From an uncultured virus (IMG/VR IMGVR_UViG_3300044996_000613) (taxonomy: Duplodnaviria > Heunggongvirae > Uroviricota > Caudoviricetes), in IMG/VR virus record IMGVR_UViG_3300044996_000613: 64,000 nucleotides of DNA. One strand, written 5' to 3'. The position numbers were made by a program, and so were the translations under genes. The notes beneath the pieces were generated by a model. The model was given only the letters and a program-made list of their open reading frames with translations. It did no database searches and had not been told where the DNA came from. Positions 1 through 57,477 of this stretch are shown here, in pieces (the stretch's first letter is position 1; every line of letters begins with the position of its first letter).

Positions 1-2
1 TC

Positions 3-3201: not shown

Positions 3202-3203
3202 GT

Positions 3204-3794: not shown

Positions 3795-3838
3795 AGCGCA
3801 CCGTTCCTTTCCGAACAGCTAAGAAGGCCATCCTGCAT

Positions 3839-3867: not shown

Positions 3868-3868
3868 T

Positions 3869-5338: not shown

Positions 5339-5356
5339 TGATGCTCGCCCTCCGGT

Positions 5357-6626: not shown

Positions 6627-6630
6627 CCTC

Positions 6631-12202: not shown

Positions 12203-12205
12203 AAG

Positions 12206-13372: not shown

Positions 13373-13404
13373 GGAAGGACCCTCTCTTTCTGGTAGAACC
13401 CGCC

Positions 13405-30307: not shown

Positions 30308-31352
30308 TGAGCCACCTCACGAGTTCGCGCGCCCGATGGCGCCACAGATGCCCCTCCATCACCCACTCAGAAGCCTGCTGTGCCTCATCTGGTGAGAATG
30401 GAGAGATGTCAGCCACCTGTTTCTCCACTTGCTCAGCATCATCCGGGATGGACACTACCAACGGCAATGCCTCGGCTTGTGGGAGGTTCCAGACCACCGG
30501 CCGCACCCCCGCCAACAAGTATTCATACACCTTGATTGGGCTCACCCAGCGAGTGAGTTCCTGACCAGGTCGGAACAGAGCCAACCCGATGCGCGGGGTC
30601 GAATTGAGGTCTCTCCCACCCGATGCCAACACAAAACTAAGATAGGCATGCGAGACCCAGCCCACCTCTCCCCCCAAGCCGAACTTCCGTGCCTGCATCC
30701 CATTTCCCAGAAGGGGGTTGCTGTCCTGCGGCGACTGGCCGCAAAGCAACGTCGCCCGCAGCTTCCCGACCTTCCGCAACACATCAACGGCCACGTAGCG
30801 CTCATCCAGACTGCCTACATAGACAGCCGAGGTGTGGTAAGCATACCAGCAGGCATCTCTCCCTTTCAGCCAGCGCTGTGGCCAGAGCGGAGCGTCGCTG
30901 GCTGCGTTTGGGAGGTATAGCTTGTCCCCTTGGTATTGCTCGTATACATCATCCTGGAACGAACAAACCATGGCATCAGCGACCTCTAGCAGAACCTGCT
31001 CAGTCTCGGCCAGCGCATACTGCTGCGCAGAAGGGAATGACGGCCAGTGGTCGAAGCGGTCGTAGATCACCTTGAAGCCCCGCCGGTGGGCGGCCTCGGC
31101 GGCCCAGATCATCTCCCGTCCGGGGGTCGTCACCAGAATTGCCACCTTGTCCCCACGAGCCTCCAGGTCGTCGAGCATCATGTCTACCGGCTCGCTGCGA
31201 TACACGGGGCCGGCGCCAGGGACATAGACGTTGGTCTCAACGACGTGAGCCTCTACCCCCGACATCTCACTCAGTCGCCCCAAAAGCTGAGGCACGCGCT
31301 GCCCCTCTCCCAGAAGGCGTAGAGGCGCACTAATCAGCGCTGCTACCTGCAT
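30294..31352 (-). CDS. GT-B fold (GT4-like) glycosyltransferase (start reassigned to ATG 31352)
   Basis: QRVPQL, VIYDRFDHW, YLPNAA, YVGSLDE, SPIKVYEYLLAG, LWRHRA. GGAGG upstream. Confidence 0.8.
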   Translation of the reverse strand: MQVAALISAPLRLLGEGQRVPQLLGRLSEMSGVEAHVVETNVYVPGAGPVYRSEPVDMMLDDLEARGDKVAILVTTPGREMIWAAEAAHRRGFKVIYDRFDHWPSFPSAQQYALAETEQVLLEVADAMVCSFQDDVYEQYQGDKLYLPNAASDAPLWPQRWLKGRDACWYAYHTSAVYVGSLDERYVAVDVLRKVGKLRATLLCGQSPQDSNPLLGNGMQARKFGLGGEVGWVSHAYLSFVLASGGRDLNSTPRIGLALFRPGQELTRWVSPIKVYEYLLAGVRPVVWNLPQAEALPLVVSIPDDAEQVEKQVADISPFSPDEAQQASEWVMEGHLWRHRARELVRWLNGLW

Positions 31353-32457
31353 CGGTTCTCCCTCCTGACACCCTGTGGACCACATAGCCCGACGAAGAGC
31401 GAGGCGTATAGACGTTGCTCCCCGTGCTGACGATCTGGCTGCCACAATGACGCATGGACAAATACTCCGTTGGGTCCACCTCATTCCCATGCGGCCTCAG
31501 GTCGCAAACGTACCACCCTCTGGCGAAGGGGCGAAAAGCGTCGGCTGGGGCTCTAATAGGAAGAGGCACTGCCCGGATGCCGAAGGGGCTGGCCGCATTG
31601 AGCGGGTAGCTCCCAATCACCTCTACCTGGTAATCGGAGTCTATCACCAGGTCTGCGTGGTCACTAGTCACCGCATCCACGATGTAGGTCACGGCGCAGT
31701 TGTCACGTTCAGCCTTGAACAGAGCAGCATTGGCATTCGCCTGATCCAGTCGTTCGGGGATGTTAACCTCGTGCTGGATATGGTAGGCATACTCGTCGAG
31801 GAAGTGGAACCGGAATCCACTCTTCCCTAACCGATACCAAAGTTCGTTGTCCTCGTACCCCCACGCCTCGAAGCCAGGATGCCAGGCGCCCACTTGCAAC
31901 AACCAGTCACGCCTGAGCGAGATGCCGCTACCCCCACCCAATGACCATAGCGGCTGAGCGGGTGCCCTCTTCAGCCAGTCGCACTCCTCCAGAACGGGAC
32001 GCCTCCAGTCGTGCGTTGCTGCCCGCCAAATATCGGGCGACACATGGTGCTCCAACGACTCCTCTCGCCCTACTCCCCCATCAGGCCACACAATGTTCTT
32101 GTGGAGGTTCGCCACTAACAGGGGGGCCTCCCCGATATGCTCCTTGTGAGCATAGTAGTGAGAGCGGACAAGGCTGGGATACATGACGACATCGGCATCG
32201 CAAAACAGCACGATGTCTTCTTCCAGATGTGGCAACGGAGCGTTCCGAGTAGCAGAAGACGCCCACCCCCTACCGTTAGAAATCACAGCATCTACGTTCC
32301 CCAACGCATCCGGGTGCTCTGGGCGCCATCCATGGCAGGACACGACGATCCGCCCCACAACCTTGCTACGAGCAACATCCTGCCACCAAGGCAGCACCGC
32401 CATGAAGCGCTCACGGTGGTAGTCGGCGCACGGGATCACGATGTCAAGCCGATTCAT
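31330..32457 (-). CDS. GT2 glycosyltransferase with GT7-like C-terminal motif (start reassigned to ATG 32457)
   Basis: DIVIP, ATRN, FCDAD (DxD), GFEAWGYEDNEL, YHIQH. Confidence 0.88.
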   Translation of the reverse strand: MNRLDIVIPCADYHRERFMAVLPWWQDVARSKVVGRIVVSCHGWRPEHPDALGNVDAVISNGRGWASSATRNAPLPHLEEDIVLFCDADVVMYPSLVRSHYYAHKEHIGEAPLLVANLHKNIVWPDGGVGREESLEHHVSPDIWRAATHDWRRPVLEECDWLKRAPAQPLWSLGGGSGISLRRDWLLQVGAWHPGFEAWGYEDNELWYRLGKSGFRFHFLDEYAYHIQHEVNIPERLDQANANAALFKAERDNCAVTYIVDAVTSDHADLVIDSDYQVEVIGSYPLNAASPFGIRAVPLPIRAPADAFRPFARGWYVCDLRPHGNEVDPTEYLSMRHCGSQIVSTGSNVYTPRSSSGYVVHRVSGGRTDAGSSAD

Positions 32458-32896
32458 GTTGCCCGTCCCCTTGCACCAGCGAAGATACCACACCCGTAAG
32501 CGCCTCGATCCGCCCCCCCACCGACTGTAGCTCGGAAGCGACGCCTTTCAGATCGGCGTTGAATCCGTCCATCCTGGCCTCCAAGCCGGTGATACGTGCC
32601 TCGTCAACCTTGAATGACTCAGCATGGGAAGCATCTGCGATGCGCGCCAGGTGAGACGCCATTACGTCTAAGGCTATTGGGGGGCAAGGGTGGGGACGGA
32701 CTACCTCTACAAAGGGGGTTGACGCCTCGGTGACACCAACGACCGCTAGAACCGGGGCGTCAAACATCTCACCAGCAATCCCCTGTCGCAGGGACGCGAT
32801 CTCCTCAGCCTGTGCCTTCACCAAGGCCTCGGCCACTGACAACCGTTCCCTCAATTCGACCTTCGTCGGCTGCCTCATCTTCCCCCTGGACATCAC
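32444..32896 (-). CDS. hypothetical coiled-coil protein
   Basis: Coupled ORF with heptad-like segments. GGAGG upstream. Confidence 0.55.
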   Translation of the reverse strand: MMSRGKMRQPTKVELRERLSVAEALVKAQAEEIASLRQGIAGEMFDAPVLAVVGVTEASTPFVEVVRPHPCPPIALDVMASHLARIADASHAESFKVDEARITGLEARMDGFNADLKGVASELQSVGGRIEALTGVVSSLVQGDGQHESA

Positions 32897-36621: not shown

Positions 36622-37920
36622 CTAGCCTGGGAGCGCCCCAGGTTGAAGCTGCTCGCTGTACGACGATATGACCCTCCGATGGTATTCCTGTTCGGTCGGG
36701 TGGGTCGCCACACAGAACTGGTCTGTATGGTAAGCTATATTAGTACTCAAGATGTTGGTCTCGTCCCGCACATAGATGCCACCTGGGTCGCGGCTCGCCA
36801 TGCGCAAAGCCCCGGCGTACTTGGCCGCCCAACCGGCCGGGCTCTTCACTGGACACGACCCCAAGACGGGACACTTCATCTTGTCGCAGTTGGGGGGGCC
36901 GGCGAAACGGGCGGCCTCGGCTACCTTATTGAACGGGCTGTGGGCGTCCCAGTCTTCGGGGTTGAATCCCGGCGCCGACTCCGACACCCTAAGCCACTCC
37001 TGGGCCCCAAGCGCACCACACGCCTTGACCATGTTGACCCCAAAGTAGAGCCACAACTCGTAGTCGCCCAACTCGCTGATTTGGCCGTAGCGGTCATCCT
37101 GTCCCGAGAGCCCACGAAGACGATGGCAGTTATCATAGAGGTAGCGGAGTATCTCGTGACTAGGGGCTGGAAGGATGTAAGTGGCATTGACCTCGCGCGG
37201 TCGGTAGGTCTCCTTGAGGTTCTCCAGATAGGGCCAGAACCACTCGCTCTCGTGGCGTTCCGGCGTAGTGACCCAAAACGACATGCGGGTCCAGCGGGCC
37301 TCTACTCCATCTTCCGGCGCTGCCGTAGCACCCTTCAGATTCCGGGTCCCGATCACCCGGATGATCCGCGCGATGTCGGCCGTCACCTGCAAGTCGATCT
37401 TGACCGGCCTGTCGGCCACCCGCTCCTGAAGCAGCACCGCCAGCTTGCGAAGCCCAAGACGAAGAGACTGCCGCTCCGCACTGTCACCAGGAGCGATAGG
37501 GGGGGTCGCCAACCAGACGTAGGCCCCATTCCCACTACACGCTACCACGGGGTAGTTGTGGATGCCTTCCTTCATGCAGAACACAGCGAGGTCTTGGGCC
37601 GCCTGGATGGCGTAGAGCGTCCCAAGATTGCCGGGGTACAATGGCCGCTTCCCTCCGTCTTGGCCGGGGTCGATGTCGAATAAGACGTTGTTGATCGACA
37701 CCACTCCCGCCCCACCAGCCGAGATGCGCTCATTCACCCCCACGTAGACGTGCCACCAATCATCAGCTTCACGACAGACGCTGACGAACTCGTCTTCGCC
37801 CGCAACATCAACCAGACGCGGGCGACGGTCGGCAACGGCCGACAGGAGACGCATGTGGGACCCTGTAGCGTGCCCCAGCAAACGGTAGGTCTGCCTGACT
37901 GCCGGTTCGTCGATCCTCAT
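36622..37920 (-). CDS. archaeo-eukaryotic primase (AEP)-superfamily primase with Cys-containing C-terminal domain
   Basis: VYVGVNER, FDID (DxD), SGNGAYVW, DIARIIRVIGTRNLK and C-terminal PPNCDKMKC....CPVKSP. Coupled to the helicase. Confidence 0.75.
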   Translation of the reverse strand: MRIDEPAVRQTYRLLGHATGSHMRLLSAVADRRPRLVDVAGEDEFVSVCREADDWWHVYVGVNERISAGGAGVVSINNVLFDIDPGQDGGKRPLYPGNLGTLYAIQAAQDLAVFCMKEGIHNYPVVACSGNGAYVWLATPPIAPGDSAERQSLRLGLRKLAVLLQERVADRPVKIDLQVTADIARIIRVIGTRNLKGATAAPEDGVEARWTRMSFWVTTPERHESEWFWPYLENLKETYRPREVNATYILPAPSHEILRYLYDNCHRLRGLSGQDDRYGQISELGDYELWLYFGVNMVKACGALGAQEWLRVSESAPGFNPEDWDAHSPFNKVAEAARFAGPPNCDKMKCPVLGSCPVKSPAGWAAKYAGALRMASRDPGGIYVRDETNILSTNIAYHTDQFCVATHPTEQEYHRRVISSYSEQLQPGALPG

Positions 37921-39416
37921 TGGGTCTCTGGTACCACCTGTCCCCCCGGCGGAGGGAGGTTACCACCGACGACCACATGTTCCGGCGACAACTGCTCCGG
38001 GTACGGGACGTAGCAGTGATGGTCCATAGAATACAACAAACGAAACCGGGAGTCAAGGCTCACCCCACGCCCTCGTGCCTTGGTCACATACCCCTCCGCA
38101 TAATCTACCGTCCCTTCAGAGTAGAGATCGGCCCGGAAAAGCTGGGTCACACTGTGGCACGATTTCTCTAGCGCAGAGCTACCAGCCAGATCGTCTACCC
38201 GAGGGCGCTTATCGGCCCTCTTCCACTTCTCACGGTTCTCTTGACAGGCCAGAAGGATGAGGGCGTTGAGACGCAGCGCCTGCTGCTCCAGCGAGTGGAC
38301 GATGTACTCCACCTCATCGTGGCGCCGACCCCGAGCTTCGTCAGACCTCACCCGGTTGATCGTGTCGATCATGAATACCCGATAGCCACGACGATACCGC
38401 TCGTCAATCAGCGCCTGAACCTCCGACAACTCGAAGTTCATGTGGTGAACAACATCGAAGATGTTGTCCTCCGACATCTTCGCCATATATCCCCCGAAGC
38501 TCTGCTTGGCGGCACCCCACTGCTGCCAAGCCTCGGTGTGGGACATGCCGGCGGCCTCGAACTGCCTCACCCAGTCGTAGCGGCGCGTTGGGCTGATCCC
38601 CATGATCTCCGCAAACAGGTCCTCGGCGAACTCGGCCTCCCTGACCTCGTAGTTGAGGTAACAGGTACGGAAGTTGAGACCAAAGCACATGGAGCGCAAG
38701 ATGCTTCGGAGGAGGGTACTCTTCCCGTGCCCAGTGGCTGCCGATACCCCATTGATGCTCCCTAGCGGCATTCCTGGGCGGTTACCGCGCGAGATGAGGC
38801 GGTCCCACTCGGGGAAGCCGGTGCTGTAGTACTCGCTGTCGATCTCCCCTATCCGGTTCGCCAGGTAGAGCCAGTGGGCAGGTTCTACTCCCTGCCCGGT
38901 TAGTACACGGAGACTAACCGTCTCCGTCGTCATCTGCCGCAGATCAGGAACCACATCATCAAGCGTAGCGTCTCCGGCCGCCAGAGCCTGTAGCGCCTGT
39001 CCAAGGGCCCCGGCGTTCTTCCTGACATCGCAGTATCTCTGCCACGCCTGGAATCGAGACAGCAGGGTGCGGAAATTGGCGCGCGACAGGGGTGTGCGTA
39101 GGAACTCCGTCCAGAATGTCGAGGCGTGCTGTTCCGGCTTGCCGGTCGCCTGAGCGATGATCGAGATAACGCTGCTCCGGTGCTGCACTTCGCTGAGCAC
39201 TGGAGATACCTCTACCGCATAGGCCCGACAGATGTACTGGTAGAGCGCATGGAACATGGGATCAGGGAACGCAGGCCCCTGAAGCTGAGCCCTCGACAAC
39301 TGTTCCGCTGCACCTTCTACAAAGAAGGCTGACGCAATAAGCGAGGATTGCTCTTCAATGTTTGGCGCAGACAGCACCTTAGCATCAGCCATTAGCAATA
39401 ACCGCCCGTAGGTCAA
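37917..39416 (-). CDS. dnaB: DnaB-like superfamily 4 replicative helicase
   Basis: STGFPEWD, Walker A AATGHGKST, NYEV, FMIDT, ACQENR, DLAGSSALE, TKARG. Confidence 0.85.
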   Translation of the reverse strand: MTYGRLLLMADAKVLSAPNIEEQSSLIASAFFVEGAAEQLSRAQLQGPAFPDPMFHALYQYICRAYAVEVSPVLSEVQHRSSVISIIAQATGKPEQHASTFWTEFLRTPLSRANFRTLLSRFQAWQRYCDVRKNAGALGQALQALAAGDATLDDVVPDLRQMTTETVSLRVLTGQGVEPAHWLYLANRIGEIDSEYYSTGFPEWDRLISRGNRPGMPLGSINGVSAATGHGKSTLLRSILRSMCFGLNFRTCYLNYEVREAEFAEDLFAEIMGISPTRRYDWVRQFEAAGMSHTEAWQQWGAAKQSFGGYMAKMSEDNIFDVVHHMNFELSEVQALIDERYRRGYRVFMIDTINRVRSDEARGRRHDEVEYIVHSLEQQALRLNALILLACQENREKWKRADKRPRVDDLAGSSALEKSCHSVTQLFRADLYSEGTVDYAEGYVTKARGRGVSLDSRFRLLYSMDHHCYVPYPEQLSPEHVVVGGNLPPPGGQVVPETQ

Positions 39417-40494: not shown

Positions 40495-41252
40495 CAGATC
40501 AGCCGTCTCCTGATGCGCAACCCTGCCTGGAGCAGGTCGCGCTCGTCCAATGGATTGGCGCCATACACGTCCACCTCAGGCGATGATAGCTCCGGGAGGA
40601 TGCCACTGTCAAGACCCCCAGCACCGATTGTGCGTAGCCATTCGTCTGCCCGGGTCATCATACGGGCACGAACAACACCAAATCGAACCGCGTACTGGAT
40701 GGGGTAGAGCCGTGTGTCCCACGCCCTCTTCACCATAGATGCCCACGGCTGGACGAACCGAACAGACACAGGAGAAACAGGACGGGTCAATCCGCTCTTC
40801 CCGGCTATAGCTCCCCAGCAGGTAGCCCTCAGCCCCAGACGCTGCACCAGCCACTCGTAGTCCACCCCATAGGGCTCCACGTCTCCCGGCGGGCCCCAGG
40901 CCATCTCCACCATGCTGGGGAGAGACCATAAGGGTTCGCTCAGGCTCCCTATCGGCACCACACGCAGAAGGTCGTAGACATCAGCAGTCGAAGCCTTGTA
41001 GTCGTCGATCCATCCGCGCTCCTGAGACCCAGCCGCATCACGGATCGCACAGATCGCAGCACTCGACGCCTGCGCAACTGCCACCCTGACGGTCGTCCCG
41101 AACAAGGCCCCCTGTCTCCCAATGGTATCCTGGAGGAGAGGGAGGAGGTCTTTGTTCACCATCCATCGGTCAACAAGCTGACGCTGGATGCTTAACAAAA
41201 AACTGGCCTTTGCCAGTCCTACGTCAGTCCCCGGTAGGATCGGCATATCCAT
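40494..41252 (-). CDS. hypothetical protein
   Basis: 252-aa coupled ORF. Confidence 0.6.
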   Translation of the reverse strand: MDMPILPGTDVGLAKASFLLSIQRQLVDRWMVNKDLLPLLQDTIGRQGALFGTTVRVAVAQASSAAICAIRDAAGSQERGWIDDYKASTADVYDLLRVVPIGSLSEPLWSLPSMVEMAWGPPGDVEPYGVDYEWLVQRLGLRATCWGAIAGKSGLTRPVSPVSVRFVQPWASMVKRAWDTRLYPIQYAVRFGVVRARMMTRADEWLRTIGAGGLDSGILPELSSPEVDVYGANPLDERDLLQAGLRIRRRLI

Positions 41253-42510
41253 CGAAGATTAGCTCTTCCCCACGTAGATGGCGCCCGATGTCCTGGATGA
41301 CAATGGCGTTGGTGATTGCTTCTGCTAGGGGAGCAATGAGCAGGCCACCGAAGAAGTTAATCGGCCTTTCGTCGGCCTCCAGTATCTGCCCATAGACCCA
41401 GTTGAACACACTCAGGCACAGATTGCTCTGCGGCCGGATGCCGGCCCTCCCGAGCATGCGCTCCACCTGTTCGGGGGAAACGCACACCTCTCCGTGTCCG
41501 CCCAACACAGAATCGCGAAACCACTCGTAGCTGGCTGCTATACGAAGAGGCGCTGCCTGCCCCGATAGTTGCTCCATGGTGGCCAGATACTGGACCACAT
41601 CCCCCCAGGGTACCCCTCCATCCAGGGGATATTCCGGGATGGCGGCACGCAAACCACTAGGCAAAGACAGAAGCTCGTTGCCACTCACGCCATCCCCCCT
41701 CCAGGCCACCGAACACCGCGCAACCGCAATCGAGACCCCCTTAACGGCGAGCACGCCATCTTCTGGTGGCCACGGAGGCCCATAGAGCGCCCGAGACACC
41801 ACAGCGGGTTCCCAAAGCCTCCCGCCGTCCAGGATGGTCTGAGAGACCGCCGCCCTCACCGCTTCGAGCCCCTCGATGACATCCGACTGGATGCTTGCCC
41901 CATTACCAAGCGACGGCCCATCGCTGGAACCAGACTCGATAATGGCATTCAGCCTCCCTCTCTCAGCAGCAGCCATAGCTACCAATGGGTCTCCCATTGA
42001 ACCAGGAACAACAGGACCAGCCGGGGGTCCGTCTTCTATAATCCGTTGTTCCCAAGGAGTCCTCTTCACAGCGTTGATCGGATGTCCCTCCTCTGGTAGT
42101 TCTACCATCGGCGGGGGGTCCCCCGTCTTGTAGACCCCTACCAATACTCGGAGGGCATCCTGGTCCAACCGGACGACTAGCGTCGTCTCCCCACTGCAAT
42201 GAGGGCACGACCCCCCCTTACCTCTTCTTATTGATGATGGCTTTCTGCATTTAGGACAGAAGCGGAAGGCCCTAGAGATCAGACCTTCCGCTTTCAGAAC
42301 AGCTATGCGGCGCCCTAGCGCCATTCTCGCAGCGTCAGCGCTGTCAACCGCGCCTCCCTGCTGGCCAACAGCCACAAGCCTACCAGGATCGACCCCAACG
42401 TCCAACCGAGAGAGCAGAGGCTCTTGGTGCTTCCACTGCTCAACGAGCCAGAAGAAGCAGGCAAGGGCTATCGGCCGGCAACCCCAGTAGTCTCTGCGGT
42501 CTTCGCTCAT
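41224..42510 (-). CDS. hypothetical protein with Zn ribbon (CPKC-x14-CPHC)
   Basis: A pair of CxxC motifs follows a possible winged-helix segment 'GRRIAVLKAEGLISR'. Confidence 0.65.
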   Translation of the reverse strand: MSEDRRDYWGCRPIALACFFWLVEQWKHQEPLLSRLDVGVDPGRLVAVGQQGGAVDSADAARMALGRRIAVLKAEGLISRAFRFCPKCRKPSSIRRGKGGSCPHCSGETTLVVRLDQDALRVLVGVYKTGDPPPMVELPEEGHPINAVKRTPWEQRIIEDGPPAGPVVPGSMGDPLVAMAAAERGRLNAIIESGSSDGPSLGNGASIQSDVIEGLEAVRAAVSQTILDGGRLWEPAVVSRALYGPPWPPEDGVLAVKGVSIAVARCSVAWRGDGVSGNELLSLPSGLRAAIPEYPLDGGVPWGDVVQYLATMEQLSGQAAPLRIAASYEWFRDSVLGGHGEVCVSPEQVERMLGRAGIRPQSNLCLSVFNWVYGQILEADERPINFFGGLLIAPLAEAITNAIVIQDIGRHLRGEELIFDGYADPTGD

Positions 42511-42515
42511 ACCCC

Positions 42516-42941
42516 CTAACCGATCCGTGTCTGCTCGCCTTTGAGGAAGGCCTTCACCGCCTTGATTGCGTCGGGGTCGCCGACAATCAACGACAACGCA
42601 GTGCCGACTGCTTCCTCTTCTATAACTTCGACAACGTCGGTATTCCCCCTGTCGCGTAGAGCCAACGACCTGTACAGAGAGGCAGTGTTGCTAGCCGTAA
42701 CTCCAGCCGGCACCTTCTCTTGGGTGTCTACGATCTTCAGGATAGCCTCAACGACATCCTTCGCTCTGTTGCCCACGACGACCAGGAGGAGTCTGAGAAT
42801 GACCTTGGCAGCCTGAACTGACATCTGGTTGCCGGCCTGGTCGCCCTTCAGCTTCCTAAGAAGAGCGCTCCCGACTAACCCCAATGCCAAGCAGACTGCA
42901 CCAACGACGATGGTAACATAGATCGGCGTGGTTGTGTCCAT
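42516..42941 (-). CDS. membrane protein with N-terminal TM helix, possibly holin-like
   Basis: Hydrophobic N-terminus IYVTIVVGAVCLALGLVGSALL followed by a basic patch. AGGAGG RBS. Confidence 0.6.
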   Translation of the reverse strand: MDTTTPIYVTIVVGAVCLALGLVGSALLRKLKGDQAGNQMSVQAAKVILRLLLVVVGNRAKDVVEAILKIVDTQEKVPAGVTASNTASLYRSLALRDRGNTDVVEVIEEEAVGTALSLIVGDPDAIKAVKAFLKGEQTRIG

Positions 42942-42976
42942 GTCTTCTATAACCTCCTATGGTATCCAGCGAGAGA

Positions 42977-43005
42977 GTAATACCACGAACGGACAGTGCT
43001 GTCAA
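42977..43005 (-). promoter_or_regulatory. sigma70/sigmaA-type promoter TTGACA-N17-TATTAC with extended -10 TG
   Basis: The minus strand reads TTGACA GCACTGTCCGTTCGTGG TATTAC. It heads the replication block and shares CGTGGTAT with the promoter at 3839-3867. Confidence 0.7.
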
Positions 43006-43032
43006 CCCCATCCTAGCGATGCCTCGATTAGG

Positions 43033-43089
43033 CTAGTACTTCTAGGACCTCTAGGACTTCTAGACGTACAGAATCCCAAGAACGTCTAG
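43033..43089. repeat. 9-bp periodic CTAG repeat plus CTAGACGT/ACGTCTAG inverted pair
   Basis: CTAG at 43033, 43042, 43051, 43060 and 43086 (another at 43013). Confidence 0.75.
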
Positions 43090-43198
43090 TAGCATATGAA
43101 GAGGGTGTTTGTGGCTGTTGGACACAATGAGTATATATGTTGAGTGCAGCTTTTTCCTGGTAAACATGCACACTTTCACAGTTTAGGCCCAGTGATTG

Positions 43199-43661
43199 AA
43201 TTGAACGGTTTCTGTTCATTTGCCTACCAATCACGTCTTCTCAGTAGGGGGGCTAATGAACAGAAGTTGTTCATTTGCATGGGCGCGGCAACACCCGTTT
43301 TCTGCTGGAACTACGGGAGATTTTATAAGCAGCTATCCCTGACCCAAGGAGCCCCAAAGAGGCGCGGACACAACATAAAAGAAGATATGCAACTATGCAG
43401 TCGTATTCAGTGTACAATATAAGTTGTGCGACACATATTGGACTACTATCTTCTTGTTGGCTGATGGCCCAGATAGGCAAATGAACAGAAACTGTTCATT
43501 TGACACATTTTGTCATTGTTATATCCACTAAAAAGTAGATATATGAGTCTTTTTCGTGTACGCTACCCAACGCCAAATGAACAGAAACTGTTCATTTCCC
43601 AGCCAAATGAACAGTTTCTGTTCATTTGGCATGGGGTGAAATGAACAGAAACTGTTCATTT
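43199..43661. repeat. six copies of the 23-bp palindrome AAATGAACAG-(AAA/TTT)-CTGTTCATTT in AT-rich non-coding DNA; candidate origin or operator array
   Basis: Copies at 43199-43221 (2 mismatches), 43254-43276 (3 mismatches), 43479-43501, 43575-43597, 43605-43627 and 43639-43661. Confidence 0.92.
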
Positions 43662-43798
43662 CACCTCCAACACCATCAGAGCCACGATCAGATAGGTAGT
43701 TGTGGAAGACGAGGAATCTGGGGTGTAAGGTCGTCAACACACCTCAGCCTGGCAGTGGGTTGCGTCGTAGTATACGAAGACAGAAAGAGGAATCGCCA

Positions 43799-44113
43799 AT
43801 GGAGTGGATGGTGCTGAGAATTGTCGCAAGCCTGTTGTTGCTAATCGACTTCGCGCTGTCCGGTGGGCTCATAGCTCTAGGTGTGTCTCAGTGGGCATTG
43901 ATCCGTGGAATAGAGATCAACCCCATCCTGAGGCACTTATCCAACAAATCGAAGAACCTCAAGTGGGATCGCCGGGCCCGCGTCTGCTGGGTCTTGTACT
44001 GGGCCTTCTGGGTTGCCCTCTGCTGGCTGCTTCCGGCGCCCACCATCCCATACTACTGCGCTGTAGTAGTCGTCGTGAGCCTGTATGGCATCGGCTCAAT
44101 GACGGCGTTCTAG
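43799..44113 (+). CDS. small multi-pass membrane protein (DUF5658-like E.NP motif); the only convincing plus-strand gene
   Basis: AGAGG RBS before ATG 43799. Three to four hydrophobic segments. 'LIDFALS...GIEINPIL'. Confidence 0.65.
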   Translation: MEWMVLRIVASLLLLIDFALSGGLIALGVSQWALIRGIEINPILRHLSNKSKNLKWDRRARVCWVLYWAFWVALCWLLPAPTIPYYCAVVVVVSLYGIGSMTAF

Positions 44114-44301
44114 GTGGCGTAGGCAAACTCAATGAAGAATGGGTAGTCTACACGAACAATTGCGCAACCAATTAGGTTGGCAAATCCAGAGCTTTCTCCA
44201 CTCTTCTTGAATCCAGCCGACGCCGACCTCACTGGTGGCACCTTCTCCCACCCATGGGTGTAAGTGCGGTGGGTGTGGCCTTGCTTGACTGTGTTATTCA
44301 T
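44110..44301 (-). CDS. small hypothetical protein
   Basis: GAGGG RBS, directly downstream of the peptidase. Confidence 0.4.
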   Translation of the reverse strand: MNNTVKQGHTHRTYTHGWEKVPPVRSASAGFKKSGESSGFANLIGCAIVRVDYPFFIEFAYAT

Positions 44302-44316
44302 TCGTCCCTCAGCTAA

Positions 44317-45252
44317 CTAGTTGGCCTTGAACTGCACCAATCCGTACCCGAACAGCGGATCGCGCCCTGGCGCTCCCAGGTCCATGGCGTCGGCGCGCAT
44401 GTTGTCCCATACGAATTCGGCCATGGTCATGTTGTTGGGCTTGGTGTCTCTGAGAGACTCCCAGTATAGCGCTGCGACACCAGAGACCACAGGACAAGCC
44501 ATGCTGGTGCCCGACAACAGCGAGTAGCTATTGGTGGGCCAGGTTGAGTAGATGTCGGTGCCGGGGGCCGCGATGGCCACGCCTGGCCCCGGTGAAGAGA
44601 AGTCGGCGTGGTTGTGCTGCTGCCCCACAGCCGCCACTGCGACGACCTCCTCCCACCTGGCGGGGTAGTCCACTGCATCAGCCGTTGGAGGAAGCCCACG
44701 GCCGTCGTTCCCGGCAGCAGCGAACACCAGCGATCCAGCCGCCCGAGCATCCTTGATGGCCTGGTGGACGTTATCCGGTGGGAGGTCGTTGCAGCCGAAC
44801 GACATGTTGATGATGTTACAACCATCTGCAGCGGCGGCGCTGACGGCATTAGCAACCCAGTCGTAGTCGCCCCACCCAGAGTCAGAGAGCACCTTGTAGA
44901 CGTACAGGGAGCACTCGGGGGCTACTCCCACAACCCCGATGTCGTTGGCTCTAGCTCCGATGATGCCGGCAGTGTGGGTCCCATGACCGTCTTTGTCGTC
45001 TAGACTACTGCCAGTGAAGTCCTTGAATGAGACGATGCCGTCCTTGAGATCGGGGTGGTTTGCAGCGCACCCGGAATCCAGGATACCGACCTTCACCCCG
45101 GCTCCGTTGACACCCGTCTCCTCTGTACGAACGACCTTGACACTCCAGTCTACGGTCTCCGAGAGAGACGCCATCACATGAGTGGGATTGCTCGGACGGA
45201 TGAAGAATGCTCCGCTACCCATAGGAACCGCCTCCTTATGGCGTTGTGCCAT
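44317..45252 (-). CDS. subtilisin-like S8 serine peptidase
   Basis: Catalytic triad ILDSG, HGTHTAG and GTSMACP. Oxyanion motif AAAGND. Confidence 0.95.
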   Translation of the reverse strand: MAQRHKEAVPMGSGAFFIRPSNPTHVMASLSETVDWSVKVVRTEETGVNGAGVKVGILDSGCAANHPDLKDGIVSFKDFTGSSLDDKDGHGTHTAGIIGARANDIGVVGVAPECSLYVYKVLSDSGWGDYDWVANAVSAAAADGCNIINMSFGCNDLPPDNVHQAIKDARAAGSLVFAAAGNDGRGLPPTADAVDYPARWEEVVAVAAVGQQHNHADFSSPGPGVAIAAPGTDIYSTWPTNSYSLLSGTSMACPVVSGVAALYWESLRDTKPNNMTMAEFVWDNMRADAMDLGAPGRDPLFGYGLVQFKAN

Positions 45253-46156: not shown

Positions 46157-49100
46157 CTAGTGACCGAAAGCGGCCCAGTGGAGGGTCCCGCCTTCAGCGA
46201 CCTTGACCTTGGCCCACTTGGTGGTCACGTCCATGACGTGGGCGCTGCCAGACTCTTCTCCACTGAGGTAGGCAAACACACCTGGAATCTCCCGATAGAC
46301 CACCTGAGCCGCGTTGATCGAGCCTGTGTCTGCTGCCGGGACCACACGGTTGTTGGCGAATAGGATGTACCACTCGTCGTCGGATTCCTCGCTGATGTAG
46401 GCACTTCCCGCGTATACCCGGAGGTCGAACTCCACACGGAGCCCGACGTAGTCGGTCACGAGCTTGAAGCTATCCAGCGGCAACCGGCGCATGGGCACAA
46501 CGGCTAGCCACACCTTGCTGACGCCGCTGTCGCTACCGACGAACCTCGATAGCTCGTAGTCAACAGATCGCAGGTCGATCCATCCCTCTGCCACCTCATC
46601 GTCGTAGATGAAGGGGCGCCCCCTGTTGATGAACCTCCAGCGGTTCTCGACGTGATCCCAGGCGAACATTATGGCGCAGACGATCTCACCGGCTGTGTCG
46701 ATGGCATAGCCTTGGAACTCCAGCCAAAGTCGGCGTAGCCCGTAGGTCGGCAACACTCCGCCGGTAGGCGTCTCCTGCCACGGGTTGGTCCTGAGCGCCT
46801 GAAACGCCCCAAACTGCCGACCAACGTACTCCGTTTCGTCTAGCAGTCCGGTTGGGAAGACCGACGACACATCGAAACCTACCATCAACACGGGGACGTA
46901 TCCGGTCCCGCGTGGGGTGATCTCAGCCTTCACGTTGTCCAGGGCAATGATGGCTTCGCTCTCTTCTCCTGTCAAGCCACGTGGTGTGGGGGCGTGCCCC
47001 TCGGCACCCCCTGGGGGTGGGGCCGGTAGTTCGTCTCCATCAGGGACCACATTGTAGGTCTCAACCTCGACTACATAGGCATCGTGGTCGATGACTGCCG
47101 ACGCCGTGAATCCCCCTCCAGACTGGGCCTCCTGATCGGCACGCAGAGCACCAAAGCCGGAGCCGGCGAAGCCTGTATCCACATATCCATACAGCAGTTG
47201 GATCGACGATGGGAATGAGTCGCCGGCGCATCCAAACTCGAACTGCCCAGGCTCGGGCTGGATGATGATGCTGTCGTACAGTGTGCGCCCCTGAGAGCGG
47301 TCCACCAAGAACGGTTCGATGCTGAAGTACAGCGTGTAGCCAGCCGAGACAGCAAAGTAGGACTCGTACTTGCGGTCCACGTAGTCTTCGACATCCTCCC
47401 AGTTGTCGGTTTCGTCGATTTCCATGTTCAGCTTACGGACGTACACCCTGGTTACCGGGTGCAGATTTGGCGATGGGACCGTCACTAGGCCGAATGGCTC
47501 GTTGGAGTTCAACTGGGTGTACTCGGAGCCAGACGGCAGCGAAGGCATGTTGACCTTGAAGATGGTGTACTCCCCATCTCCATCCGCGTTTCGCGACAAA
47601 ACCGGGGTGTCCGACCCGATGTACCCACCGGGCAGTGCGGTATTGACTGCCCTGATCGGGCTCAGCGTTGCGCTCGCCGTCCCGAAGTAGCATCTCTTCT
47701 TTGTTGATCCGGCCCCCTCACTGCCATCCATGCCAAGCGCGACAGCGTATACGTACCAAATCAGAGGACTATCAATCTTCTTCGTAAGTACTGTGGTCCC
47801 AAGCAGCGCCACACCGGCCGACGCAAATCCGGATGTGGGGGTGTTACTAGCATAGAGCTTAACCCCACGTACCCAGTCAGCCGGATCGTAGTCGTCCCAC
47901 CGACTCTTGATCCACAGCCCTTGGTTGGACGAGTCGATGTCGTCATCATCCCTGTGGGCGACCTCAGTGACGAAACCACTAGGTGCCGCTGGGGCGCCCA
48001 AGCCATCGAACACGGTCATCTTTGTGCTGCTGTTATACGGTTGGCGATACCCTGAATTCCAGGCTTCAGTGTACCCAACTGCCAACTGGACGCTGTGGCC
48101 ATAAGACGTGTCGGCCACCTTGACGACGAATCCAAAGTTGGGGCGTCGCAGCAGGACGGCCTCTCGCACGTAGTCGGACACGTCGAACGCCACGTAGTCG
48201 CTGGACGAACTGATGACCTGGGTATCCACCAACTCCAGGTTGGTCGGTCTGTCGTCCCAGTAGATGTAGTAGCCTCCGCCGGATCGGGGGTCGAACTCGT
48301 CATCAAGCACAGCGTAAAGCTCCAGCGTCACCGAGCTTCCGCTGCAGTACTGGACACCAAGGGCTACCTCTGACCTCATGATCGGAGGTACTTGGTTTCC
48401 TGGACGGTCGCGAGTCACTAATGCGCCCGTGTCTGTGTTCCAGTAGGAATATATGTAGTAGTTGAAGAAGAAGAAGCCCCACCGATCTTGGGTAGAGTTA
48501 GAGACTTCAACGTATGCGGATGAAATTGGATTGTAGTAGCTGTCTTCGTAGAATCCACAGAAGAAGTAAGACAAAGTACGCCACAAGTCGCTCTCTGGTG
48601 CCCCGTCAATATCATCCATGACATACGAGTATTCAGGGATGCTGCAGATGTAGGTACTAGGGAGGCTTACAGAGAGCGGAGCAATCTCCGACATTCTACC
48701 GTCCGAGTCGAGAGCCACAACGGCGTAGTAGGCATTTCTCGTGGAGATGCCATCAAACTCGTTGTCGTCGTAGTAGGTTTCGGTTATCGGTGTGCCCGTC
48801 AACCTTGTCCACTCATGCCCTGTTATACCCTTGCCGACCTCATAGCGGCGCCACACATGGTAGCTGATGGGCTCGAAGCCAATGCTGTCGTCAGCCCGCT
48901 TCGTGGGGGCGCTCCACGAAATACGCTGCCCAGTAGCCTTGAGTGTAGCAGCCAGCGACGGCCGGCCAGGAGTAGCGAACGCGGGGGTCCCGGTCTTCCA
49001 GGTATTGGGCCGGCTGCAGGGATGAGATGTGGTGGGACTTTGAGCCTGCACCGAGAACCACATGTTGTCATGGTCACGCGGATTGTAGGTGAAGCTGGTG

Positions 49101-52100
49101 TCCACGATGTCCTCGCTGATGCCCGCTGCTGACAGGTCGCTGTAGAGGTAGCGCACATGGTAGGCATCGCAAGTGATCGTCGCACCAAGCTCATTCAGTG
49201 TCACCGGCGTCCACGAGACGTAGACCTGTTGGGTGCGGAAGTGCGCGCGGTTCACCTGATCGGTGTCTTCTTCACAGTTGGCAAACTGGAACTCGACCTC
49301 CAGGTATCGGCCGGTGTCGCTGATCGACACCTCGGAGGCGAGATCGGCCAACGGCGACCACGGCTCCCCCGTCAGCCCGCCCTCGGTCTCTGCCGCCCTG
49401 TAACGAAACTGGATCGTCCCCCCACCACTACCGAGCTTGTAGATGAATCGGGCCTTATCCCAGGTGGCTCCAGAGAACCCGGCATCTAGGACATAGTTGG
49501 CCGTACCGGCAGTCTGGCCCGTATCTAGCGTCAGGTAGCCGTCGTCATTGGCTGACCAGCCGATGTCGAGTTGCCACTCCTCATCGGAGTAGACCTTGAT
49601 TGGGAGGCTCCCCCAGGTCTGTACCCCCTGCCGCACCATGTTGCTGACTTCGCTCATGTTGGGGGCATACACCACACGTACTGCTCCCGGCTGAGAGTCA
49701 ATGAATGTGATCTTCTTCCCAGTGATCTCATACTCGCTGCTGGGGACAACCAGCCCAGTTTGTAGATTTCGAACGTGATGGACCGTCGTCGGCGTGTAGG
49801 TTAGCTGCCCTTCCTTCGTCGCTGGGGTCTGGTACTCCACGTAAATCTTCTCTGCATCGTGGGCAGAGACATCGTACACGTAATCGACCTTCGGGAAGCT
49901 GTTACTTGTGATCGTGAACGAGATACTGACGTTCCCGTTTTGCGTCACGATGAAGCCCATGTTGCGCTTGGCCCCGGTCTTCCACGCCTCCAGGTAGGTA
50001 GCGATGTTGGCGCTATACTCGTAGGTGGAGCCCGAGACCAACGAACGGGTCATCGTGCAGATAGGAGTCGGGTCCACGTAGGATGTGGTGAGCGTCGCCT
50101 GGTCGCCGACTTCCTTGATGACCTCGTAGAGAGTCAGGTCTACGGGGTTGGGCGAGATGCCCGCTGGCATGGTGAGGCGCAACCGCAGAGTGGCGCTCGT
50201 GATCGTCCGCTGTCTTGCCCACATGTAGAACGCCCAGCCAAGACGGAAGAACAGTGGGGAGCCCCAACCGTCCTTGAACTGCGAGTCGAGCTTCTCGATC
50301 TCGGTCCCCTTAGGGATTCCAAGTTCGTTGTTATGGAACCCGATGGAGCCAGTTTTCCCGCCGTCGTTGGTGTAGGTTTTGGTCAGGCCGGTTGCAGCCC
50401 CTTCGGCCGCCAGCGGCCTCTGTCGGGAACCAAAACGAATGTAGCTGTAGCTATCTTCGTTGGATGGAACCCAGTAGCTCAATTCCTTCACGCAGCGGTA
50501 GACATCCCCGGCTCCATCAGGAACCAGCCAGACGCGAGCCGACCCGATGCCCATTGGAGGGTGAAGGACGTAGAAGTCCTGTGTCCCGGTCCCTGCGCCA
50601 GTATCATCTCCAGTGCCGATATACTCACCCCACCACTGTCCGTTGTCGGAATCGAAGTATATATCGTCGGCGAACACATTGCCGTCCGTGCCGAACGACA
50701 TCTCTTCATATGGCTTGTAGGTGTAGTAATTGGGATACGATCCGCCCGCGAAGTAGTCAGCGTAGTAGTAGCCATAGTAGTCATATGGTGTGGCTTCCCG
50801 GAGGTCCCAGTCGGCCATCCATACCTTGAGTAGATCAAGTGATGCTACATCTGGGAAGAACCCAAGCGGCAGGTTGTAGGTGTCCCAATCGAAAGCCAAC
50901 GGCACCATATCCGGGCGCACGATGCTGATGACCCCATCCGCCGAATCGGTCTTCACTTGGAGGTTGGAAATCGACTCGTTGTTGCTCCACTCATCAGCGG
51001 TCCCAATGACCTCTCCGCCCTTGACTGTGAACGAAGGAGCCAGCGGGCGATCTTCCAGCGCGATGCCGGACGGAATCGCAGATACGGCGCTGCTCTTGTC
51101 GCCCTCCACACTCAATCGCACAGCCGATACGCAGTACCAGTACGTGTAGCCGTTGGTGAGCCCGGTGTCGGTGTAGGTGGTCCCACTGATGAGACTGGCA
51201 TTGACACGGGTCCATGGCCCGGCCGAACCACCGCCGCTTTGTACACAGCTTCGGTAGACGATGTACTGGCAACCAGAGATCAGGCCACCAGCGACATCCC
51301 TGGTCACTGCGACCCAGTTGAGCACAACCTGCTGGTTGCCAGGTGTGGCGGTAAGCCCGGTAGGGGCGGATGGTGCCGGCGACGCGCTAGGGGCCGCATT
51401 CTGCGGCTGGTTGTACGAGTTGGTGGCGGGGTCGGTGAGCGACGAAACGTCGCTCTCCCTGCCATCTGCCGTATAGCAGGCTACCTTGTACCAGTACGTG
51501 GTACCATTGGTTAGCCCTGTATCGTTGTAGCTCGTTCCCGAGATCGTAGCGATCAACGAGTAGGCTGAATTGTCGAGGCTGCGGTACAGCCGGTAGCCCA
51601 CGACGCTTGTGTCCCCCGACGCAGCCCACGAGATGGTCAGCCGCTGGTTACCAATCGTGATCGGGTACATGTACGGCGGGGCTGGCGGGTAGACATCAGC
51701 CAGGTTGAACGAGTGGACCGCCACATTTGAGCCGTACACATGCCCCGCGAGCGCATCAAGGCCCTGCGCAGCAGGGGGGGCCTGTGACAGATGGCGGAGG
51801 TCGATGGGCGCCCCAAACGTGTCGCCGTCGTCATCGAACTCAACAACGAAGATGACGGGCTTGTCGGGCCATCCGGCAGTCCGATTGTACCAACCGAAAT
51901 CCACCTCGTTGTACTGGTTCTTCTCAGCGCAGCAGTAGTAGTAGCCATCCCCTTCGCCGGCTGGTGACCCCACATCCACCCACTCTCTGACCGCCATGTC
52001 GGTGCGCTCGGTGCGGTACATTCCGGGGCCGACTTCGATCTCGGTGGCGCTCTTCTTATTGATGGCCAGACCGAAGTAGATGGCTTCTCTGTGCTGTTGC

Positions 52101-55100
52101 CCCAGGCCGCGCTCAGCCTCAGTGATCTGTTCTCGGTGGAGCGCCCCCTCCGTACCAGTGAAGATCAATGGATGGAGGTTGACCAGGTAGGAGCACCACC
52201 CATCATCGGCGTCCTTGATCGGCCGGTCGCCACGAAGCACGATGCGCGCCATCTCCAGGCTACGGGTCTGGAGTGCAGGTGGGTATCCATCGGCCCCCTC
52301 TACCCCTTCGTAGACCGCAAACGATGTCCCGGCGCTGATTTGGCAGCTATCCGTGCGCTTGCCCCAGTGGCGGTAGGTCACATCGTACTCCACACCATCC
52401 ACCGGATCGAAACCGGAAGGCGTCCAGTCCACCCGGTCGAGACCCACCTCATAGTCGTGCTCGATGTCGATGTCGTATGCCGCCCCTCCGCTGTGGGCGG
52501 CCTCGGGGACACCGATCAACGCAAAGTTGTCGAACTTGACCGTGCCGGTCTTGTTGTCGAACACAATCAAGACCTCACCGTGACTGATGTAGTCAGTCGG
52601 CATGTAGTCGTAGGTGACCTCTTGCCAGGTACCCGATCCTACAGGCAAGGTGATCGTGTGGTCAAGCTCCAGCACATTGTCGTCGGTCCACAGCCGGAGA
52701 CGGACGGAAAGCTCGGCGTCCTCGCCGCCAACTGTGATGTTGCGCCAGTAGTCAAACGAGAGCCGCAGCGGACGCTTGGAGAATGCCTCTCCGCTGTCCT
52801 GGTCGATGCTGAACCGCTGCCGCACGTGGTGCAGTTGGCTGCCCGAGTTGCTGATTGCCAGGCACTTGGAACGCGGGTCGTTGGCGAAGCCGGCATCCAT
52901 GAGTGTGCGCTCGGCTGTGTCGATCTCGTAGAGCCAGTCCCAGTCCTTCCACCAGCGGTTGGCGTTGGCGGTTGTGTCTCCCTCACTGGCGTCCCAGGTG
53001 ATCGCACCGAGTACGACCTCCCAGCCATAGGGGGCACCAGTACCGTACTCAAAGTGCCCGTTGAAGATATGGTTGGGCACCATCCAGCGACCATCTTCTT
53101 GTACCCAGACCGTCACGAAGTCTGTGCGCATCAGGGCGCCGTTGATCCCATTGGCTGTGTATGTGCAGTGGGCCCGGACGTAAATGTACCCATCGGCCTG
53201 CACGTAGTCATTGAGGTCGGATGTCAACTCGCCCTCAAGAGCCATCTCAACGTCGGTGCCAAGGTTGTCGTCGTCGTAGTTGGCTAGCTCTTCCCAGCTA
53301 CTTCCGTTCCAGATCGACAGAGCCGCCCCATACTCTGTGGTAGCACCCACCGGACGCTCGCCGCACCCCTCCCAGCGCACCTTGATCTTCGATATTGTTC
53401 CGTTGTTCTCGATGTGCCGGAATCCGAAGATGTGCATGATGTACTCGCCGCTGGTGACGGCCGATTCGCTCTCGGAAGTGACGCCATCAGAGAAGAACAT
53501 GTTCTGATAGGTCTCGTCCTCGTCATTCAGCACGGGCTCACCGTTGCTCTCGAACCCGGCGTCGGTGAATTCCTGGGCTGCACCGGGGAGCGACTCTGGA
53601 TCGACAGCCAGTGTGCTGTAGGACAGGTGCCAGCCGATGTTGGTGTGGGCGTCGCTTCGCGGGCGACGTAGCGTGTGGTCACACCAGGCATCAGCCTCAA
53701 TGCGGCGGATGCTCTGAAGTGGGAATTGCAACCCCTCGATGGGGCTGTAGTGGGACCACACGTTGAAGCTGTTGGGTTCATCGGCCACCAGATCGAGCGC
53801 CACGAACGGATGGTAGGTGTCGCCATCGGCTGGGTGCTGTCGGATGGCGACGGGCTTGAGGACAGCCTTGTGGCGCGACGGTTCCCCGATGTTGTCTAGG
53901 ACTACCCGCTGCCCGTCGATGTAGGCGATCCCAGTGCTACCCACATCGAGATAGACGCTACGGCTAGGGGTTGTGTCGTCGTCGGCGTCGATGATTGTGT
54001 CATCGACGATCAGGCCGTCGCCACCTAGCTCATTGAAGTAGGTCAGGAGGATTTGAGGGATGAGGCCGGGCGCATCGTCGTTGCCTGTCCCCTGCCAGGA
54101 CCTGGCATCAGTGATCGACGACGCGGGGACGCGCTCTTCACCAACCAGTTCGTTGGTCATGTAGATGTAGGCTAATAGGATCATGTCGCTAGGCAGCGAT
54201 GGTGCCTCTGCGACTTCAGTGATCTCTACAGTCGTCCCCTGGAGGGCGTAGGTGACACCATCCTCATCCATGTAGAAGATGTCGAGACGGTGAAAGCCCT
54301 CAGCGCACGACCCGAAGCTGTAGGCGTGGAAGCCTCCAGCGTACTCACGGCGCCTGCCCTGGGCGTAGTATACACCAGAGGTAATGTAGACCTGTGATGA
54401 GCCGGCGTCGGTGGGATATGCCTGCACCTGGCACCCAGACGCCACTACGTTTCCGTGAAGCTCGTAGGTTCGCATACGGATGTTCTCTACGAGTGAATCG
54501 GCGTCTTCACGAGCGTCGATGCCTTCGTCTCCGGTCCAGATAACCTGGCGGCGCACATAGAGCACATTGTCCGACAGGGTGGCGGACTCTTCGTCAACGA
54601 TGGCGCCGTCGCGCCGGATAAGGACCCACCCAACACGCACGTGCTCTTCGTCCATGGCGGGGACCTGAGGAGACGCGGATGGTGTCCCGGTCTTCACATC
54701 CACCACCCCATCAAGGCCCAACTGCATGAGGGCGTAGCGGGGCAGCGCTTGGTAGTACTGGGCCCAGAAGTTCGTACCCGGCGTCGGATAGGCGAACTTG
54801 TCTGCCTTGAAGTGGACCTTACTGTCGTCAGTCAACTCGTAGTTGTCGGTCGGGACCGGCTCGGCCTGGTCAATGTCGCCAGCGTTGAACACACCCGACG
54901 TGACCCAGATGTACGCATAGTCCGACTCGACATCCACTGACGCCCCGCCAGATGCCACGTTGGCGGATGCTGCAGCCAGGTAGATGTCGCCACCGGCCCC
55001 CACGTAGTCCAGGACATTGCTACTGATCTGTCCGCTGATCTGGGTGATCGACGTTGTGGCCGTCCCCAGGCTCTCCCACTCGTCGGTGTCCCAGTTGAAG

Positions 55101-57408: not shown

Positions 57409-57477
57409 TGCCTTATCCTTCCCTGTCCCACGAGGCAGAGCCCGCACTTGAAGTATTCCTCAGCTACCTACCCACCT

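Follow-up and report, generated by a model that had tools for sequence, protein, structure and literature searches.

The replication origins of phage lambda and of Stx phages contain four or six imperfect 19-bp inverted-repeat iterons, which are bound by dimers of the O protein and lie beside an AT-rich tract (PMC7466680). Here we describe an array of six 23-bp palindromes in a 64,000-nucleotide stretch of DNA from an uncultured virus (IMG/VR record IMGVR_UViG_3300044996_000613); the whole stretch is termed the window, and positions are counted from its first nucleotide. The array occupies a noncoding island upstream of a leftward operon whose second gene encodes an orphan protein of 428 amino acids (aa). 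We put at about even the chance that the array is the core of a lambda-like replication origin in a large uncultured freshwater phage-like element. An origin was one of several candidates named in a preliminary description of the same DNA and is now the leading reading, as its sites lie around the window's least stable DNA and the strand composition switches at the island.

Among described systems, the lambda origin would be the closest in its working, with several inverted-repeat sites (here six, of 23 bp) beside an easily unwound AT-rich tract. It lies inside the initiator gene, whereas the present array is intergenic, 689 bp from the 5' end of the 428-aa gene at 42510, and the present sites are irregularly spaced, of mixed orientation, and placed on both sides of the AT-rich tract. 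Lambda O has an N-terminal DNA-binding domain, and helicase-delivery functions come after this initiator. The 428-aa protein differs from it in having no Pfam or PHROG family match and in carrying a zinc ribbon in the wing of its predicted winged helix.

A second comparison is offered by the RepA_N iterons of pSK41, pTZ2162, and the Vibrio PLE, which are semi-palindromic direct repeats with inverted sub-repeats whose arms of 8, 9, or 13 bp run toward a poly-A tract (PMC7145576). The likeness is that the 10-bp arms of the present sites converge on AAA and that the candidate binder is modeled as a winged-helix dimer, which is the form of the RepA_N initiator; the difference is that the present sites are of mixed orientation and irregular spacing instead of direct repeats. 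No RepA_N domain was matched in the 428-aa protein by Pfam (E ≤ 1). Clusters of dimer-bound palindromes also occur in divergent control regions, such as operators of the lambda OR/OL type and the inverted repeats of plasmid Rep autorepressors, where distant clusters could loop. Unlike such repressor operator sets, the present locus has four identical perfect sites that bracket the least stable DNA, a single site at a predicted promoter hexamer, and a skew switch. The tests applied did not place it in the lambda-O or the RepA_N family.

Six palindromes confined to one island

We scanned the whole window with the pattern AAATGAACAGNNNCTGTTCATTT, allowing at most 3 mismatches, and found six copies of AAATGAACAG-N3-CTGTTCATTT (Table 1), while none of 100 dinucleotide shuffles contained any match. 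The six palindromes of the preliminary description were all recovered where it had placed them, with the same centers and the same gaps (32, 202, 73, 7, and 11 bp, in order; 55, 225, 96, 30, and 34 bp from start to start). Four copies are perfect, and the two degenerate ones carry 2 mismatches each, which leaves 8 of the 10 arm positions complementary. The 10-bp arms surround AAA or TTT in five copies and AAG in one, and the orientation is mixed. All nine exact occurrences of the 10-base half-site in the window fall inside the island, as do 11 of the 12 matches with at most one mismatch and 13 of the 41 with at most two. Only one other palindrome with perfect 10-bp arms was found in the 64 kb, at 56000. 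Distances between the centers of perfect sites amount to 2.86, 3.24, 6.10, 9.14, 12.00, and 15.24 helical turns, which is near helical phase, and A/T runs occur in each site at positions 1 to 3, 11 to 13, and 21 to 23, about one turn apart. Such periodic runs and phased spacing are compatible with bent, wrapped DNA.

The conserved unit is longer than the 23-bp core and measures about 29 bp with its flanks. When the 12 half-sites were aligned toward their centers, position -3 was G in 10 of them, position -1 was C (8 cases) or G (4 cases) in all 12, and position -2 was never A. Symmetric stem extensions had been reported before, and they are present (GCC/GGC at 43602-43630 and GGTG/CACC at 43635-43665, the latter a 4-bp extension private to copy 6). 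They had been taken as co-varying flanks and as a sign of selection on hairpin or cruciform structure. When the 12 half-site flanks were re-paired at random, P was 0.064 for the summed extension and 0.129 for the two longest, and symmetric flanks are to be expected fairly often given the extended half-site consensus. Some flanks recur among copies: TAGGC is found to the right of copy 1 and to the left of copy 3, an inverted pair noted earlier and returned by our inverted-repeat listing, and CATGC lies to the right of copies 2 and 5. This recurrence has the look of past duplication rather than of compensatory change. The flanks follow the extended consensus, and selection on structure found no support, as the flanks pair not significantly better than at random and stability is automatic in any palindrome.

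These results bear on the possibility of a structural hairpin or cruciform element (extruded DNA hairpins or RNA stem-loops), serving for instance as a strand-specific priming or loading signal, as hairpin promoters of the N4 type, or as a structured RNA, which we consider quite unlikely. The perfect copies do fold into stable DNA hairpins (-7.7 to -14.6 kcal/mol, versus -3.5 and -8.1 kcal/mol for the degenerate copies), copies 4 and 5 are able to form one 26-bp stem, copy 6 has its private extension, and the nonpalindromic AAA or TTT center is kept in five of the six copies and alternates in copies 4 to 6. The outcome of the flank test speaks against such an element, and so does the Rfam scan of the region, where all 25 matches at E ≤ 1 were below gathering scores and most were microRNA-like hairpins. 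There was no terminator-like call at the copies, whose stems are AT-rich and have no U-tract past the stem, and no RNA record is listed for the island region. The noncoding RNA or protein sponge suggested earlier found no support either, the Rfam matches being subthreshold ones to generic hairpins. Promoters of the N4 type were rejected: the 3508-aa open reading frame (ORF) of the window has no RNA-polymerase signature in Pfam or PHROGs, and no virion polymerase was seen in the window. An array of recombination sites, another earlier suggestion, also fared poorly, as no recombinase for such sites was recognized in the window; a 3-bp center is atypical of recombinase core sites.

Stability and promoter-like sites of the island

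The ORF map and the base composition bear out that the array lies in an AT-rich island between divergent genes heading the replication block, as first described. The GC content of positions 43001-44000 is 46.5%, falling to its lowest value of 35% at 43500-43599, compared to 55 to 64% elsewhere. In a nearest-neighbor scan, the candidate DNA unwinding element of Table 1 ranked first for instability at scan lengths of 40, 60, 80, 100, and 150 bp. At 60 bp, its value was -1.138 kcal/mol per step, about 5 standard deviations (SD) off the mean of -1.514 (SD, 0.072). The least stable tract corresponds to the 73-bp spacer (43502-43574) that separates copy 3 from copies 4 to 6, and the perfect sites thereby bracket it.

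The array could also be purely a set of operators for a dimeric regulator (the 428-aa protein or another phage protein) without any role in replication, a reading that is the main rival to the origin and that we hold to be possible but less likely. In that case the regulator would repress or time two divergent promoters, that of the replication operon and that of a small plus-strand gene, through cooperative binding or through looping between the pair at 43199-43276 and the cluster at 43479-43661. The location of the palindromes in a divergent intergenic region agrees with this, as does the enrichment in promoter-like sites: with a sigma70-like position weight matrix, 15 of the 128 top matches of the window fell in the island, which makes up 1.5% of the sequence. 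The two best were TTGGGT-16-TAAAAT, directed leftward with its -35 element at 43347, and TTGACA-17-TATTAC, directly upstream of the replication operon. Copy 3 shares bases with a TTGACA hexamer at 43500, and the inner 17 bp of the site (TGAACAG-AAA-CTGTTCA) set the half-site centers 10 bp apart, a spacing seen in classical helix-turn-helix operators. However, copy 3 is the only one of the six sites to overlap a predicted -35 element, under a sigma70-like model from which the promoter type of the host may differ, and a strict consensus scan yielded no promoter in 42400-44400. Moreover, operator sets with graded affinities less typically comprise four identical perfect sites, and a pure operator array leaves the skew switch at fourfold degenerate sites and the bracketing of the least stable tract unexplained.

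Other features of the island were recorded. Two DnaA-box-like sites with one mismatch, out of 25 in the window, are uninformative. Small ORFs inside the island were dismissed as spurious, having no convincing ribosome-binding site and mostly running through the palindromes. At 43033-43092, we observed three to four tandem 9-bp units based on CTAG (CTAGGACTT-like) and an inverted partner (CTTCTAGACGT / ACGTCTAGTAG). With 6 CTAG in 100 bp, this repeat is where CTAG is densest in the window, although the tetramer is under-represented overall (127 seen versus 231 expected); it lies about 60 to 120 bp upstream of the TTGACA-17-TATTAC site and may be the site of a second regulator.

A strand-composition switch at the island

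Nearly all genes of the window are on the minus strand. We evaluated skew at fourfold degenerate sites (n = 10,984) of minus-strand genes only, so that transcription runs the same way on both sides of the island. The cumulative plus-strand GC skew at these sites is V-shaped, with a minimum at 42349, and a two-segment likelihood analysis placed the change point at 42445, with a 2-log-likelihood interval (41917-44836) that brackets the island. The GC-skew analysis that had been recommended revealed a change of sign at the island. Pooled G:C counts were 2401:2637 to the left and 1250:1040 to the right (Fisher P = 3.9e-8), and the per-gene comparison gave a Mann-Whitney P value of 0.007 (37 versus 11 genes) or, without the giant gene, 0.013. 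For G/C, the shift had one sign in 7 of 8 fourfold codon families, and for A/T it did so in all 8. Rightward of the island, the plus strand turns G- and T-rich. Leading strands classically show such enrichment, which would be expected if forks departed from the island both ways, and we take it as moderate support for an origin but not as proof.

A second composition change was observed within one co-oriented gene block, the GC skew at fourfold sites being flat over positions 1 to 14000 and clearly negative over 14 to 42 kb.

The 428-aa protein as candidate binder

We then analyzed the 428-aa protein, the candidate binder of the palindromes as an initiator or as a regulator. It is predicted to consist of an N-terminal winged helix with a CxxC...CxxC zinc ribbon in its wing, a Pro-rich disordered linker, and a helical C-terminal domain, the last poorly modeled. 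The AF2 model of residues 1 to 130 (pLDDT 82.7, pTM 0.78) shows a helix-strand-helix-helix-strand-strand topology in which the zinc ribbon is inserted between the last strands. In structural comparisons with this model, the best 50 entries were almost all winged-helix proteins (Z 5.7 to 7.4), and the full-length model agreed. Among the matches listed were MukF (Z 7.4), JetA (7.1), ORC1 (6.8), MarR (6.6), CAP (6.5), LexA (6.4), TubR (6.2), and 4pta (6.0). The last, entitled "Structure of MDR initiator" and presumably a RepA_N protein, aligned with a root mean square deviation of 3.3 over 80 residues and stands level with dozens of unrelated winged-helix proteins. The model therefore supports the winged-helix fold class for the N-terminal domain and nothing narrower. 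Many of the best 50 structural neighbors are repressors or activators (MarR, CRP/FNR, LexA, ArsR), in line with the operator reading.

Residues 1 to 130 passed a homodimer test, with an ipSAE of 0.67 versus 0.00 for the best control, a contact agreement of at least 94%, and a pLDDT of 81; of 30 solved homo-pairs, 20 attain the mark used, as does 1 of 23 single chains. The predicted symmetric interface comprises residues 9 to 24, 44 to 53, and 123 to 125 and leaves a putative recognition helix (residues 58 to 74) exposed. The earlier proposal that the palindromes are bound by a dimeric protein gains support from this winged-helix model and predicted homodimer, encoded in the adjacent replication operon. 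The same models would place a dimeric regulator, as the operator reading expects, two genes away from the array. Transcription of this operon from the island would fit autoregulation by the 428-aa protein; because the sites occupy the region that holds the promoters of its operon, its binding may autoregulate transcription under the origin reading as well.

By sequence, the protein is nearly isolated. Searching 1.84 billion representative proteins returned three matches (one of them a fragment from the window itself), and one 72%-identical homologue was found in addition. No PHROG family was matched, and the only Pfam hit at E ≤ 1 was a subthreshold one to Cys_rich_KTR. A sequence search of the PDB gave no match for the 428-aa protein or for the 252-aa protein of the same operon and a single weak one (E 0.57) for the 369-aa protein. 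In the ESM Atlas, the 428-aa and 369-aa proteins obtained scores of at most 0.82, with poor models and no lead.

Occurrence of the motif and relatives of the locus

We searched for the 23-mer elsewhere, as had been proposed. In viral contigs it was present at nine loci with one site each; 8 of these 9 contigs are below 42% GC, and 7 of the 9 loci have the same flanking sequence, the flanks being judged coding by eye. Metagenome contigs contained it on the phage's own contig and at three isolated sites, and 185,579 species genomes contained the exact 23-mer at only two isolated sites. Since two identical pairs are found among the isolated genome and metagenome sites, these represent three independent low-GC loci, which is about the chance expectation.

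This distribution makes it very improbable that the palindromes are sites of a global regulator of the host or a dispersed host repeat of the REP/BIME kind. BIMEs alternate in orientation, as do copies 4 to 6 here, but the scarcity of the exact 23-mer in both species genomes and metagenome contigs argues against a host repeat, and the motif is not dispersed, exact half-sites being confined to one island of the window; degenerate sites may still occur in the genome of the host.

No locus of a relative was reached in viral contigs through the 428-aa protein, the S8 protease, the polymerase, or one further alignment. With the helicase alignment, a single locus of 24% identity turned up in viral contigs and none in genome contigs. 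A blastn search of the island against phages returned no match, and tblastn likewise found nothing for the 428-aa protein in phages and plasmids or for the 369-aa protein in phages. The close relatives (one 72% and two 50 to 52% identical) are known as protein sequences only.

Gene neighborhood and genome context

Table 1 lists the array and the neighboring features. The leftward operon begins with the 141-aa protein, continues with the orphan proteins of 428, 252, and 369 aa, and then reaches the DnaB-like helicase, which is followed by exonucleases, a DnaE-type polymerase, NrdD/NrdG, a UvsX-like recombinase, and a UvrD-like helicase. By these annotations, the island heads an operon with helicase, exonuclease, polymerase, and recombinase genes, a context that would suit an origin. 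Neither the 141-aa nor the 104-aa protein has a family match in PHROGs or Pfam. To the right of the 104-aa gene, convergent minus-strand genes encode an S8 subtilase, the 3508-aa protein, and sugar-nucleotide functions.

TABLE 1 Positions of the palindromes and of the features around them in the 64-kb window
Feature	Position	Strand	Description	Evidence or remark
Copy 1	43199..43221		Degenerate, 2 mismatches; center TTT	
Copy 2	43254..43276		Degenerate, 2 mismatches; center AAG	
Copy 3	43479..43501		Perfect; center AAA	Left edge of easily melted tract
Copy 4	43575..43597		Perfect; center AAA	
Copy 5	43605..43627		Perfect; center TTT, reverse orientation	26-bp inverted repeat with copy 4
Copy 6	43639..43661		Perfect; center AAA	
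Noncoding AT-rich island	42942..43798		857 bp between divergent genes	ORF map, translations, composition
Candidate DNA unwinding element	43495..43555		24-28% GC	Least stable duplex of the window
428-aa orphan protein	41224..42510	-	Second operon gene	Candidate palindrome binder (initiator or regulator)
141-aa protein	42516..42941	-	First gene of the leftward operon	Hydrophobic N-terminal helix; AGGAGG ribosome-binding site upstream
DnaB-like replicative helicase	37917..39416	-	Three genes downstream of the 428-aa gene	phrog_19, 1.1e-31; Pfam DnaB_C, 9.7e-17
104-aa multi-pass membrane-like protein	43799..44113	+	Lone plus-strand gene near the island	Preceded by AAAGAGGAA

A block of structural-looking genes ends on one side of the island and the replication block begins on the other, and such a boundary resembles the ends of linear co-oriented phage genomes. 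We therefore weighed a centromere-like partition site, a packaging site, or a terminus, bound by a ParB- or TubR-like protein or by a small terminase. Clustered palindromes are typical of parS-type sites, and TubR is among the tied structural neighbors of the 428-aa protein (Z 6.2). Yet no ParA, ParB, TubZ, or terminase was recognized among the scanned proteins of the window, and contigs of other assemblies bridge parts of the island or end elsewhere, that of JGI starting at window position 36091; we judge this reading unlikely.

The DNA derives from lake-water metagenomes. This JGI contig of 64,081 bp is 100% identical to the window from position 36091 onward (an offset of 36,090 bp). We also noted that ORFs at both ends of the window would share a reading frame if joined over an 81-base gap. 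A rotated circle of 64,081 bp was considered for the window and rejected on the ground that the helicase is recorded on a 78.9-kb contig; for the same reason, the genome must exceed the window. A 50%-identical relative is carried by a 215-kb contig. No capsid or terminase gene was recognized within the window, so that the assignment to a phage rests on the replication genes, whose best tblastn matches are phage records at 31 to 35% identity. The window contains no tRNAs.

Several other gene groups, all on the minus strand, deserve mention. The 3508-aa ORF (46157-56683) contains DUF4815, fn3, CBM96, and Hoc-like Ig domains, and the S8 subtilase (44317-45252) follows it after two small genes; together they look like a giant fiber or decoration protein with its dedicated protease. 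The two halves of the UvrD-like helicase (316-3201) are about 400 residues apart, and the insert gave a subthreshold match to Intein_splicing (24 bits versus a cutoff of 35.8), so that it may be an intein. Glycosyltransferases are unusually numerous (19195-24965, 29465-32493, and 56683-60983), one being a multidomain protein of 1263 aa, and the same blocks contain sugar-nucleotide enzymes (an epimerase, a GHMP kinase, and a nucleotidyltransferase), which suggests an extensive capacity for glycan synthesis or for glycosylation of DNA or proteins. Finally, a domain of the uracil-DNA-glycosylase superfamily is fused with an HD phosphohydrolase domain at 7304-8590.

Discussion

Under the origin reading, we infer the steps of binding and replication as follows. 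Dimers of the winged-helix/zinc-ribbon protein would bind the sites of about 29 bp through their recognition helices. Occupation of the four perfect sites, which lie roughly on one face of the helix, would create a bent nucleoprotein complex comparable to the O-some of lambda, and the complex on copies 3 to 6 would melt 43495-43555. In this reading, the AAA/TTT center marks how a site is oriented and probably acts as a bending-prone A-tract rather than as a hairpin loop. The C-terminal domain of the 428-aa protein would then recruit the DnaB-like helicase encoded downstream, possibly via the 252-aa or 369-aa protein, and loading of the helicase would lead to bidirectional replication from the island. 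The same occupancy of the sites may also tune the promoters of the island and could autoregulate the operon.

Several observations weigh against this proposal. The spacing is irregular and the orientation mixed, in contrast to the regular tandem iterons of lambda. Of the six sites, two are degenerate and set apart by 225 bp. Easily melted AT-rich DNA is also typical of promoter regions, and the island is rich in sigma70-like matches. The skew switch coincides with a boundary of operon and gene class, and its extent depends on the codon family (-0.16 for Ala, -0.14 for Gly, -0.11 for Arg, and -0.10 for Thr but approximately 0 for Pro, Ser, and Leu), a pattern that differences in codon usage could also produce. 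Moreover, the fourfold GC skew is flat over 0 to 14 kb, and the raw skew of all positions bends nearer to 47 to 48 kb. The fold match is generic, since Z values of up to 7.4 are in the range rated as common and transcription factors tie with initiators, and Foldseek against the PDB returned nothing for either model at E ≤ 0.001. Last, contigs of four lake-water runs are identical over the island (some bins being without cover) and are therefore uninformative on the conservation of the array.

A variant of the origin reading, which we regard as improbable, is that the palindromes, besides serving as duplex sites, are extruded as strand-specific hairpins, so that one repeated module of the phage would encode a bidirectional origin. 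After melting of the AT-rich tract, loops of the AAA type would then be presented on the plus strand by copies 2 (as AAG), 3, 4, and 6 and on the minus strand by copies 1 and 5. The 428-aa protein, or an unrecognized primase of the operon, would read stem and loop and load the helicase or prime in opposite directions. The ssiA and ssiB signals of RSF1010 are a functional counterpart to this idea.

For hardly any uncultured phage has a replication origin been mapped. At this locus, four signals obtained from sequence alone come together, namely, an iteron-like array unique in the window, the lowest duplex stability of the 64 kb, a skew switch at silent sites, and a neighboring protein predicted to be a dimeric DNA binder. 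They define a testable pair of origin and initiator in a lineage with almost no relatives, and the putative initiator has an unusual domain design, with a zinc ribbon within the wing of its winged helix. Should the array turn out to be a repressor-operator switch instead, the early control circuit of this phage group would thereby be defined. If it is an origin, as we favor, it would represent a compact replicon module served by a new family of initiators.

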